A stretch of 64,000 bases of DNA, taken from the NCBI RefSeq assembly GCF_057098645.1, contig NZ_CM169472.1; one strand, written 5' to 3'. The position numbers are program-made. How positions within the stretch are numbered: position 1 is the first letter of the stretch; each line of letters begins with the position of its first letter. This document shows positions 1 to 3,000 of the stretch, piece after piece.

Positions 1-3000
1 TGGCGCTCCTTGGTAGCCGGCATCGGCTGAGACAAATTGCTCCTCTCCATGAAGCAGATTACCCAGCTGATTGAGGTCATGCTCGTTGGCCGCGGTGGTG
101 ACTAGGCTGTGGGTCAGGCCACTCTTGGCATCGACACCAATGTGGGCCTTCATGCCAAAGTGCCACTGATTGCCTTTCTTGGTCTGATGCATCTCCGGAT
201 CGCGTTGCTGCTCTTTGTTCTTGGTAGAGCTGGGTGCCTCAATGATGGTGGCATCCACCAAAGTGCCTTGGGTCATCATGACGCCTGCTTCGGCCAGCCA
301 GCGATTGATGGTCTTGAACAATTGACGGGCCAGTTGATGCTGCTCGAGCAGGTGGCGGAAATTCATGATGGTGGTGCGATCCGGCAGGGCGCTATCCAGA
401 GATAATCGGGCAAACAGGCGCATGGAGGCGATTTCGTACAGGGCATCTTCCATGGCACCGTCGCTCAGGTTGTACCAATGCTGCATGCAGTGAATACGCA
501 GCATGGTCTCCAGCGGATAGGGCCGTCGGCCATTGCCCGCCTTGGGATAAAACGGCTCGATGACAGCGGTCATATTCTGCCATGGCAGAATCTGCTCCAT
601 GCGGGAGAGGAAAATCTCTTTTCGGGTCTGACGGCGCTTAGTGCTGAATTCACTATCGGCGAAGGTGAGTTGATGGCTCATGATGTCCCTCTGGGATGCG
701 CTCCGGATGAATATGATGATCTCATATCAGGAACTTGTTCGCACCTTCCCTAAAGCAAACATGCCGTAGACAATAATTGCGCTTAGCCAATGGAAGGCCG
801 CAGATATAACACCATAGCGTTCAGGGGTATTTGTGAATGACATAAGTGCATCCAAAACGAATTTGCGAGAGAAAGAAAATGGCGTGTCGGAGAATGAATT
901 GCAACACAAAAATAACAAATTGAATGATATTTATTTTTATTTCAATAATTTTGAATTAATAATGAAAGAATCTTCATAAGTTTAGTGGGTTCAGCATCAG
1001 AGATGTCTGGTGAGTGCTGTAGAAGCAGGAATAATCTCATTCAATTTTTCACGCTAAATGAAAGGGAGATTAAATATTTGTCAGTTTATGTCAGTGCGGA
1101 AAACTAAAAATAAAACACATAGTTCAGATCCATAATTGCCAACAATCCCCAGAGAAAAAGATAAAGCATCAGATGCTCGCGAATATTATTGATGAGATAG
1201 TGCAACAGCCGACGCATTAAATACTCCTGTAAAAACGGCCTCATTCTGGAGGCCGTAATGATGATTATTGGAAGCGGGAAAGCCTGAATGAGGTCAAATC
1301 AAAATCGCTTTTTTTGTTTTGCGCAAAATCGGCAGCTATTTCCCCTAAAACTGACGCAAATTTAAAACCGTGCCCACTCAGGCCGGTAATGAGCAGTGTA
1401 TTATCGTGGTCGGGTAGGGTATCGATAATAAAATCTTCGTCAGGCGAATTATCATAGGTGCAGGCAGCGCCGTACAGGCAGCAACCGATACCCGGCAATA
1501 CATTGCGCAAGAACGGGAAGGCTTCTGACCCATCACTGGCCACTTCCGCAAACGGAACACGTTCATCCGCTGAATGGATAACCTGGCCTCCGTTATGTTT
1601 GCCAATCTTCAACGCGTCGTTTTCTGCCGGAAAACCATAATATTGATCGCCATTGGGCAGTTCACCGGTAAACGCCGGGAATTTATTCTTCACGCTATAG
1701 CGGCCATCGGCCTGATACCAGGCAAATACTTTACGTACGGGCTGGACAGGCAGCTCCGGGAGCAGGTCTTTTACCCATGTTCCCGCGCAGACAATCGCTT
1801 TTTTCGCCTGATACTCACCGTCAGCCGTTTCAATAGTTACACCATCATCGTCATGACGAATTGCGGTGACCGGGCAGTTGAACAGTTGCGCACAGCCCGC
1901 TTCCTTCGCCAGTTGGATCCAGGTTTTAATCGCCAGTTCGCTGCGCAAAAAACCGGAATCAGTCTCAAATAAGCCGATGTAGTTGTCCGGGACGCGTATT
2001 TCTGGCCAGCGGGCCATAATCCCTTGCGCATCGAGCTTTTCAACGTTGAGTTGCCACTGTTCGGCGCTGTGGGCGACGTTGGCGAGAAATGCGGAGTCAG
2101 CCGGGCCGAGGTTAATGACACCAGAGCGTACAAAAATGGGATCATCTTCGTTGTGGCGGGAGAGCTCATCCCACAGTGTTTGCGCGCGGAGGACCAGTGG
2201 GACATACTTTTCGCCTTCACCATAAGCATGGCGAATTAATCGCGTATCGCCGTGGTGGCTGCCGTGTTGATGCGGTGGCATATGGGCGTCGGTCATTAGC
2301 ACGTTTAAACCGGCGCGGGTTGCATAATACCCGGCGGCAGCGCCTACGGAACCGCTGCCAATAATGATGAGATCGTATTTCATTTTTTTCTCTCTGCTCT
2401 CATGGTTTAAGCAGAGTAATTAACTGAATGCAGATATACAACCCAGAAATGGTAAAGGCACCGGTGAGGTGCCTTTTGGGTGGATGGTCATGTCATGTTA
2501 ATGACGCCGATACTCGTTTACCTGGAAATCACCGGATTCAATTTTGGCGATTCCTGCTTCTAATATCGAAATAAATTGTCTGGCAACATCAGTGGTTAAC
2601 CAGAGCGTCTGACCAACTTCAGTCCCTTCCTGCTCGGACTTATTTGGGGTCTGGTAGTGCAAACGCAACATCAGCGCATCATAGCTATCAACGGTGCTGA
2701 TGTCCCACCCTACGAGCGGATGAGTCTGAATGACTTCATTATTTTTTTCCATCATGGCCCCCTAATTCGTGTTACTAGACAACGTTATTCGAGGTTCAAT
2801 GCGTTTTTATCTGAAGCAACTTCAGTATACCAATAAGTAAGGGTATTCACCGAATTTTTAAAGGGGGAAATAGATAAATTTCTGCTTTTAAGATTTATAT
2901 GAACAATAAAACAGCATCTCATTCATATTTTTTTAGCATATTGTGCAATTATTTTGAGGAAGTGTAGAAATTTTGTACTCAAAATTCGTAAGTAAAATAA

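Follow-up and report, generated by a model that had tools for sequence, protein, structure and literature searches.

An ISKpn26-type insertion in yceJ of an O145:H28-type Escherichia coli lies at a CTAA that IS5-family elements use recurrently

Organization of the interrupted yceJ locus

The stretch of DNA analysed here (the window) comprises 64,000 nucleotides (nt) of contig NZ_CM169472.1 (assembly GCF_057098645.1). It begins inside an insertion sequence (IS) of the IS5 family that interrupts yceJ, a gene for a cytochrome b561 homologue, in an E. coli strain of the O145:H28 type. The features of the locus are compiled in Table 1. In E. coli K-12 MG1655 the gene order is yceI-yceJ-yceO-solA without an IS; the first-pass annotation, made from the sequence alone, had put yceJ directly left of yceO in K-12, without an IS5, and the MG1655 annotation confirms this. 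In the window the order is IS, 5′ part of yceJ, yceO and solA, with yceO and solA both transcribed towards the IS, which is located downstream of both genes. The transposase gene and yceJ point in the same direction.

The part of the element that lies inside the window represents 62.6% of its 1196 bp and is 100% identical, with 0 mismatches and 0 gaps, to the 1196-bp copies in E. coli EPSSH018 and MB30. Canonical 1195-bp copies of IS5 show 92.7% identity to window positions 1–749 and about 91% over the full element. The identical copies carry the label "IS5-like element ISKpn26 family transposase" from the Prokaryotic Genome Annotation Pipeline (PGAP). Judged by sequence identity, the element is of the ISKpn26 type rather than the canonical IS5 of K-12, a name that rests on these PGAP labels. 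Positions 1–749 had earlier been described as the right-hand ~60% of an IS5; extent and family were correctly recognized, but the name has to be replaced. The 227 transposase codons present in the window match Pfam DUF772 (E value 2e-21) and DDE_Tnp_1 (E value 1e-18), the domain pair of IS5-type transposases. The ATG on the minus strand that the first-pass annotation had chosen as start is also the PGAP-annotated start of the 326-amino-acid (aa) coding sequence WP_000019445.1 in an identical copy. The terminal repeat, likewise placed correctly together with the adjoining CTAA (a YTAR target), has the form GGAAGGTGCGAA(T/C)AAG; the right-end copy lies in the window, whereas the left-end copy would lie beyond it. 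Every complete copy we examined is bounded by the same 16-bp termini. A 91-codon frame on the plus strand (478–753) runs opposite to the transposase gene, exits through the terminus of the IS and uses the TAA at 751–753 of the target CTAA as its stop.

The ISKpn26 type shares with the canonical IS5 of E. coli K-12 (insH copies) the family, the termini, the DUF772 and DDE_Tnp_1 architecture and the 4-bp YTAR/CTAA target duplication, while the two differ in length and in the left-end sequence inside the terminal repeat. ISKpn26 (IS5 family, IS5 group) is known to disrupt mgrB in Klebsiella pneumoniae (PMC8796155). The present case resembles ISKpn26 in its 16-bp termini, in the CTAA duplication seen with complete copies and in the outcome, inactivation of a gene by insertion. 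It differs in that the target yceJ has no known selectable phenotype and in that only 63% of the element is contained in the window.

On the minus strand, window positions 750–843 correspond to the first 94 nt of yceJ, encoding MSFTNTPERYGVISAAFHWLSAIIVYGMFAL. The uninterrupted site, ...cagacCTAAagcaaac..., contains a single CTAA in MG1655, in O145:H28 strain RM9872 and in strain 23555, and YceJ of RM9872 is intact with 188 aa. Alignment of the flank to the reference yceJ-yceO region, as the first-pass annotation had proposed, found the reference site empty. The gene is split after nt 90 (codon 30), within codons 31–32. Of the proposal that yceJ or its promoter had been disrupted or displaced, the disruption was borne out; nothing was displaced, and the start codon and the region upstream of it are intact in the window. 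Nor does the IS abut the yceO region, as had been thought, since the yceJ stub and a yceJ-yceO spacer of 260 bp lie in between. This spacer presumably harbors the yceJ promoter. The GC content drops to 0.22–0.27 in the equivalent of window positions 854–1003, and a consensus promoter and terminator scan of positions 600–1300 gave nothing above chance.

Table 1. Features of the interrupted yceJ locus and CTAA/TTAG sites occupied by IS5-family elements in complete genomes. Site coordinates of the five occupied sites are window-equivalent.
Feature	Position	Strand	Remarks
IS5-family element, ISKpn26 type, cut by window edge	1..749	-	positions 448-1196 of 1196 bp
DDE transposase, first 227 of 326 codons	1..681	-	ATG 679-681; Pfam DUF772 and DDE_Tnp_1
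Truncated yceJ frame	727..843	-	codons 1-31 (750-843), 7 IS-encoded codons and stop 727-729; MSFTNTPERYGVISAAFHWLSAIIVYGMFALGKVRTSS*
16-bp terminal inverted repeat, transposase-proximal end	734..749		CTTGTTCGCACCTTCC, reverse complement of GGAAGGTGCGAACAAG
CTAA target tetranucleotide in yceJ, one copy of the expected 4-bp duplication	750..753		nt 91-94 of yceJ, minus strand; occupied in 3 genomes: EPSSH018, WP9-S17-ESBL-11, 17-07187
yceJ-yceO intergenic region, AT-rich	844..1103	-	presumed yceJ promoter, now reading into IS
TTAG in yceJ-yceO spacer	982..985		occupied in 1 genome: 2017C-4173W12
yceO (DUF2770), intact	1104..1244	-	Pfam DUF2770; Ile-to-Asn variant at 1123
CTAA overlapping yceO stop codon	1104..1107		occupied in 1 genome: strain 23555
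solA, intact, 372-aa open reading frame	1265..2383	-	annotated solA in all matching genomes; conserved chromosomal flank
TTAG in bssS-dinI spacer	2933..2936		occupied in 1 genome: KD0845
CTAA in mdtH-rimJ spacer	7176..7179		occupied in 3 genomes: MB30, S1-CAM-01-A, GN04592

The host lineage normally lacks the element

Window positions 749–64000 are colinear with the chromosome of O145:H28 strain RM9872, from which they differ by 15 substitutions and a single 1-bp indel in 63 kb. A near-identical relative is represented by contig AASAWH010000013.1 of an NCBI draft assembly (GCA_012249965.1), which is 100% identical to window positions 749–11244 and encodes an intact YceJ of 188 aa. When the IS together with 8.2 kb of its flank was used as query against a collection of 5,426 complete E. 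coli genomes, the O145 chromosomes among the listed matches gave one place each, the chromosomal flank; the exception is strain 12E115 with two. All of these listed chromosomes have an intact yceJ and all but one are free of IS5-like copies, which indicates that the insertion is recent. It is a private event in a lineage that normally does not carry such an element on the chromosome. An IS is present at this site in 3 of the 5,426 complete genomes and is missing from the listed O145:H28 relatives, in line with the earlier proposal of a strain-specific insertion.

Considering that the chromosomes of the lineage are otherwise without IS5-like copies, the element was probably imported, for example from a plasmid. 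About 2,100 IS5-like places were found on plasmids across the collection, and a plasmid is a plausible donor.

Several further differences from the relatives were seen in the window. At position 1123 a T replaces the A of RM9872 and EPSSH018, changing an Ile of YceO to Asn (...MDLNYVFYF versus ...MDLIYVFYF). The same variant is present in four NCBI contigs, all with intact yceJ: the one from GCA_012249965.1 and three whose flanks are diverged by about 1%. Because of this divergence the variant must have arisen, or moved, more than once. The sole length difference to RM9872 in the 63 kb is found at window positions 26610–26612 (TTT versus TT) and lies between rne and rluC, just upstream of the rne 5′ untranslated region (UTR) element (Rfam rne5). 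Only three Rfam matches were obtained in the window, namely the PyrC leader (4408–4457), the RNase E 5′ UTR element (26189–26525) and the small RNA SraB (28387–28555). Their neighborhoods are those of RM9872: the PyrC leader lies beside pyrC, rne5 beside rne, and SraB between yceF and yceD.

The same CTAA is occupied in other genomes

EPSSH018 carries a complete 1196-bp element at the same site in yceJ, in the same orientation and with CTAA on both sides. It is the only complete genome that shares the junction orientation of the window. The flanks of EPSSH018 and the window differ at 72 of 6,547 positions, the first difference being located 103 bp from the IS, which means that common ancestry does not account for the two insertions. 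A synthetic query for the junction in reverse orientation led to two further genomes, WP9-S17-ESBL-11 and 17-07187, both of which have complete elements in the opposite orientation at the same site, again with duplicated CTAA. The element in WP9-S17-ESBL-11 is of the ISKpn26 type; that in 17-07187 is another variant, with 96.4% identity to the ISKpn26 type and 94.5% to IS5. The five complete copies seen first had suggested a fixed orientation relative to the CTAA (CTAA-IRL...IRR-CTAA, with IRL and IRR standing for the left and right inverted repeats), an idea that was rejected in view of the two reversed genomes.

A look-up with a hybrid frame, leading from the ISKpn26 left end into codon 32 of yceJ, returned 12 Logan contigs from public sequencing-run assemblies. 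The seven contigs that were read start with 24–26 nt of an ISKpn26-type left end, followed by TTAG and yceJ. Their 5.44-kb flanks differ from each other by 8–53 single-nucleotide polymorphisms, with the first differences 179–1057 bp away from the IS, and by their flanks the carriers are interleaved with non-carriers. Shared ancestry, or the spread of a single interrupted allele, is disfavoured by this interleaving and by the divergence of the flanks from 103–179 bp onwards. By these junctions and flanks, independent hits on the yceJ CTAA number about ten or more and occurred in both orientations.

None of the junction frames (the 63-aa and 38-aa yceJ stubs and the 188-aa GTG-start hybrid) was on record in exact look-ups, and a 41-nt junction pattern had 0 matches in species-representative genomes. 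A literature search for yceJ together with IS5 found no paper.

Two observations concern the left side of these insertions. In the orientation of the window the ISKpn26 left end provides an in-frame start into yceJ codon 32, and the resulting hybrid is called as a gene by prediction, with a GTG-start version of 188 aa and an ATG-start version of 166 aa (MTCLFAPSL-GLWMV...). The hybrid frame covers positions 5077–5643 of the EPSSH018 extract (L001) and positions 1–503 of the seven Logan contigs (L014-L020). These seven contigs all stop within a few bases of each other, about 5.49 kb from the IS and between yceK and mdoH, ending in ...GCCGGATGCGGCGTGAACGCCTTATCC. This end resembles a repeat of the repetitive extragenic palindromic (REP) type, which would explain the nearly equal lengths as assembly breaks at repeats.

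Use of the site compared with other possible targets

In the 8.2 kb that follow the site on its right there are 62 YTAR sites, 22 of them CTAA/TTAG. In this region the complete genomes show nine IS5-family insertions at five sites (Table 1); except for the yceJ CTAA, all of these sites are empty in the window. None of the 39 TTAA sites between positions 750 and 9000 was used by IS5-family insertions. The CTAA between mdtH and rimJ, 6.4 kb away, is a second recurrent landing site of the family: MB30 and S1-CAM-01-A carry complete elements of the ISKpn26 type there and GN04592 a canonical IS5, all in one orientation and with duplicated CTAA.

For at least three of the nine insertions to fall on one pre-specified site of 22, P is about 0.006. 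On the scale of the genome, K-12 has 15,010 CTAA/TTAG sites (PMC5009759). If every one of the ~13,000 IS5-like places in the collection is counted as independent, an upper limit that is not plausible, P for three hits on a single one of these 15,010 sites is about 0.06; with 10–30% of the places independent, P is 1e-4 to 2e-3. The yceJ CTAA is thus moderately over-used. Occupation of this target recurs in three complete genomes, in the window and in at least seven flank haplotypes among the Logan contigs; both orientations and two IS variants are represented.

All carriers (3 of the 5,426 complete genomes and 12 run assemblies) are scattered single cases, which would speak more for repeated mutational input into a site where insertions are tolerated than for positive selection. 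An IS5 hotspot has been described in nfsB, where a CTAA at nt 38–41 of the reading frame lies beside a stress-destabilised promoter region (PMC5493358). The yceJ site is similar in that a single CTAA in the 5′ part of the gene, located about 100–250 bp from a stretch of 22–27% GC, is hit time and again, unlike other YTAR sites in the vicinity. The hits in nfsB were obtained under laboratory nitrofuran selection, whereas those in yceJ are natural, rare and without known selection.

Proposed event and its consequences for yceJ and yceI

Our data strongly support the view that an ISKpn26-type element with a DDE transposase, 1196 bp and 16-bp repeats transposed into the CTAA at nt 91–94 of yceJ in an O145:H28-lineage strain, and we consider such a simple insertion highly probable. 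The left end of the element would then lie about 450 bp before the start of the window, with a second CTAA and the remainder of yceJ beyond it, as in the three other genomes with an IS there, and the left junction would read ...cagacCTAA-GGAAGGTGCGAATAAG.... The site itself, a CTAA within the 5′ part of its gene and next to a very AT-rich promoter region, would be a preferred target of the IS5 family, used without strong positive selection.

YceJ residues 9–184 align with the solved cytochrome b561 CybB (5OC0), and His18 of YceJ lies opposite His13 of CybB. After the split, His18 is found on a stub of 38 residues, 31 of them native, apart from the other 157 residues of YceJ. This position is presumably that of a haem ligand in the cytochrome b561 family. 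Since the split parts the His18 stub from the remainder of the protein, loss of function is to be expected, and YceJ is in all likelihood inactivated.

The start of yceI is located 3 nt after the yceJ stop, and both genes are listed as one unit (PMC2731931). Expression of yceI would now depend on transcription reading through the IS. For canonical IS5 the transposase (ins5A) promoter, aided by upstream host DNA, was shown to drive transcription through the whole element into a downstream operon (PMC11894529), and canonical IS5 permits read-through in the orientation present here. By analogy, polarity on yceI may be only partial. As yceO and solA are transcribed towards the IS, only the 3′ part of yceJ and yceI, both outside the window, could be affected.

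Discussion

The finding is an ordinary recent knock-out of yceJ by ISKpn26 in an O145:H28-type E. coli. Some points weigh against parts of this reading. The left end of the element and the second CTAA lie beyond the window, and the simple insertion is deduced from other strains. The evidence for read-through comes from canonical IS5 and not from ISKpn26. The hotspot statistics are based on small counts and do not distinguish a preferred target from a dispensable gene in which insertions are tolerated. The O145-type flank occurs in none of the Logan carriers, and these also yielded no contig with an O145-type left junction. This last point, like the position of the left end, would fit the view that the IS marks a rearrangement junction, produced by recombination with another copy or by an adjacent deletion or inversion, so that the remainder of yceJ would not follow on its left side; copies of the IS5 family are known substrates for deletions and inversions (PMC5009759). 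We nevertheless regard a rearrangement as unlikely. The right junction is the exact terminus of the element at a canonical CTAA, the one that the empty site contains; each of the three complete genomes in which an IS occupies this position has a simple insertion bordered by matching CTAA duplications; and the listed O145 chromosomes apart from 12E115 offer no IS5-like partner copies. An assembly artefact, in which an IS repeat was wrongly joined to the yceJ locus, would have to be considered because assemblies are notoriously prone to errors at IS copies. The join is accurate to the base at both the terminus of the element and the CTAA target, and an independent complete genome (EPSSH018) has this junction as well, which makes such an artefact barely credible.

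The presence of an identical IS at the same site, oriented alike, in EPSSH018 could also mean that an interrupted yceJ allele was acquired in finished form through homologous recombination with another E. coli. On the right-hand side of the IS, the window shows no difference from its O145-type relative and departs from EPSSH018 at 103 bp, and the right arm of the exchanged tract would have to be shorter than about 100 bp. Carriers also differ from each other within 179–1057 bp on the left side, and occupation of the site in opposite orientation and by a different IS variant demonstrates that independent hits occur. Import of the allele is therefore very improbable. A mainly regulatory insertion that alters the expression of neighbors, as at bgl, flhDC, glpFK and fucAO, seems to us improbable, if less strongly so. 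Its attraction is that IS5 drives downstream genes by read-through with host DNA upstream (PMC11894529), and here the IS has the yceJ promoter region on its upstream side and yceI on its downstream side; a hybrid frame leading from the left end of the IS into codon 32 of yceJ is moreover predicted in EPSSH018 and the Logan contigs. The activated operons (bglGFB, flhDC, glpFK, fucAO) involve the same family, and the transposase gene points the same way as the gene downstream of it (here yceI), as in glpFK and fucAO. However, the insertions at these operons are intergenic and upstream of the promoter, whereas this one is intragenic: it sits 90 nt into the coding sequence of yceJ and lies downstream of both yceO and solA, which are transcribed towards it. 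Activation of glpFK and fucAO requires a single orientation (PMC11894529), while both occur at yceJ, and the scattered single carriers give no sign of selection. The comparison with bgl and flhDC drawn in the first-pass annotation is for these reasons not applicable.

Simple insertion into yceJ remains our preferred reading, and the insertion itself is of an ordinary kind; what is mildly new is the yceJ CTAA as a recurrent natural landing site of IS5-family elements. A bolder and rather doubtful extension would be that this CTAA is a structurally determined hotspot for the family, for ISKpn26 especially, and that loss or rewiring of yceJ-yceI is mildly advantageous in strains acquiring such elements. 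The unit comprises a cytochrome b561 homologue and a periplasmic polyisoprenoid-binding protein. If this were true, yceJ knock-outs would be a repeatable early step after ISKpn26 reaches a new E. coli lineage.

By itself the insertion is one more of a well-known mobile element in a dispensable gene. It marks the strain as a member of the O145:H28-type Shiga-toxin lineage with a newly acquired ISKpn26 and is a useful strain marker. Resistance and virulence plasmids commonly carry ISKpn26, and most chromosomes of the lineage lack it, which hints at recent contact with a plasmid. For the IS5 family, the yceJ CTAA is added to the short list of naturally recurrent landing sites, and, as a neutral site free of selection, it could be used to test what makes a CTAA "hot".

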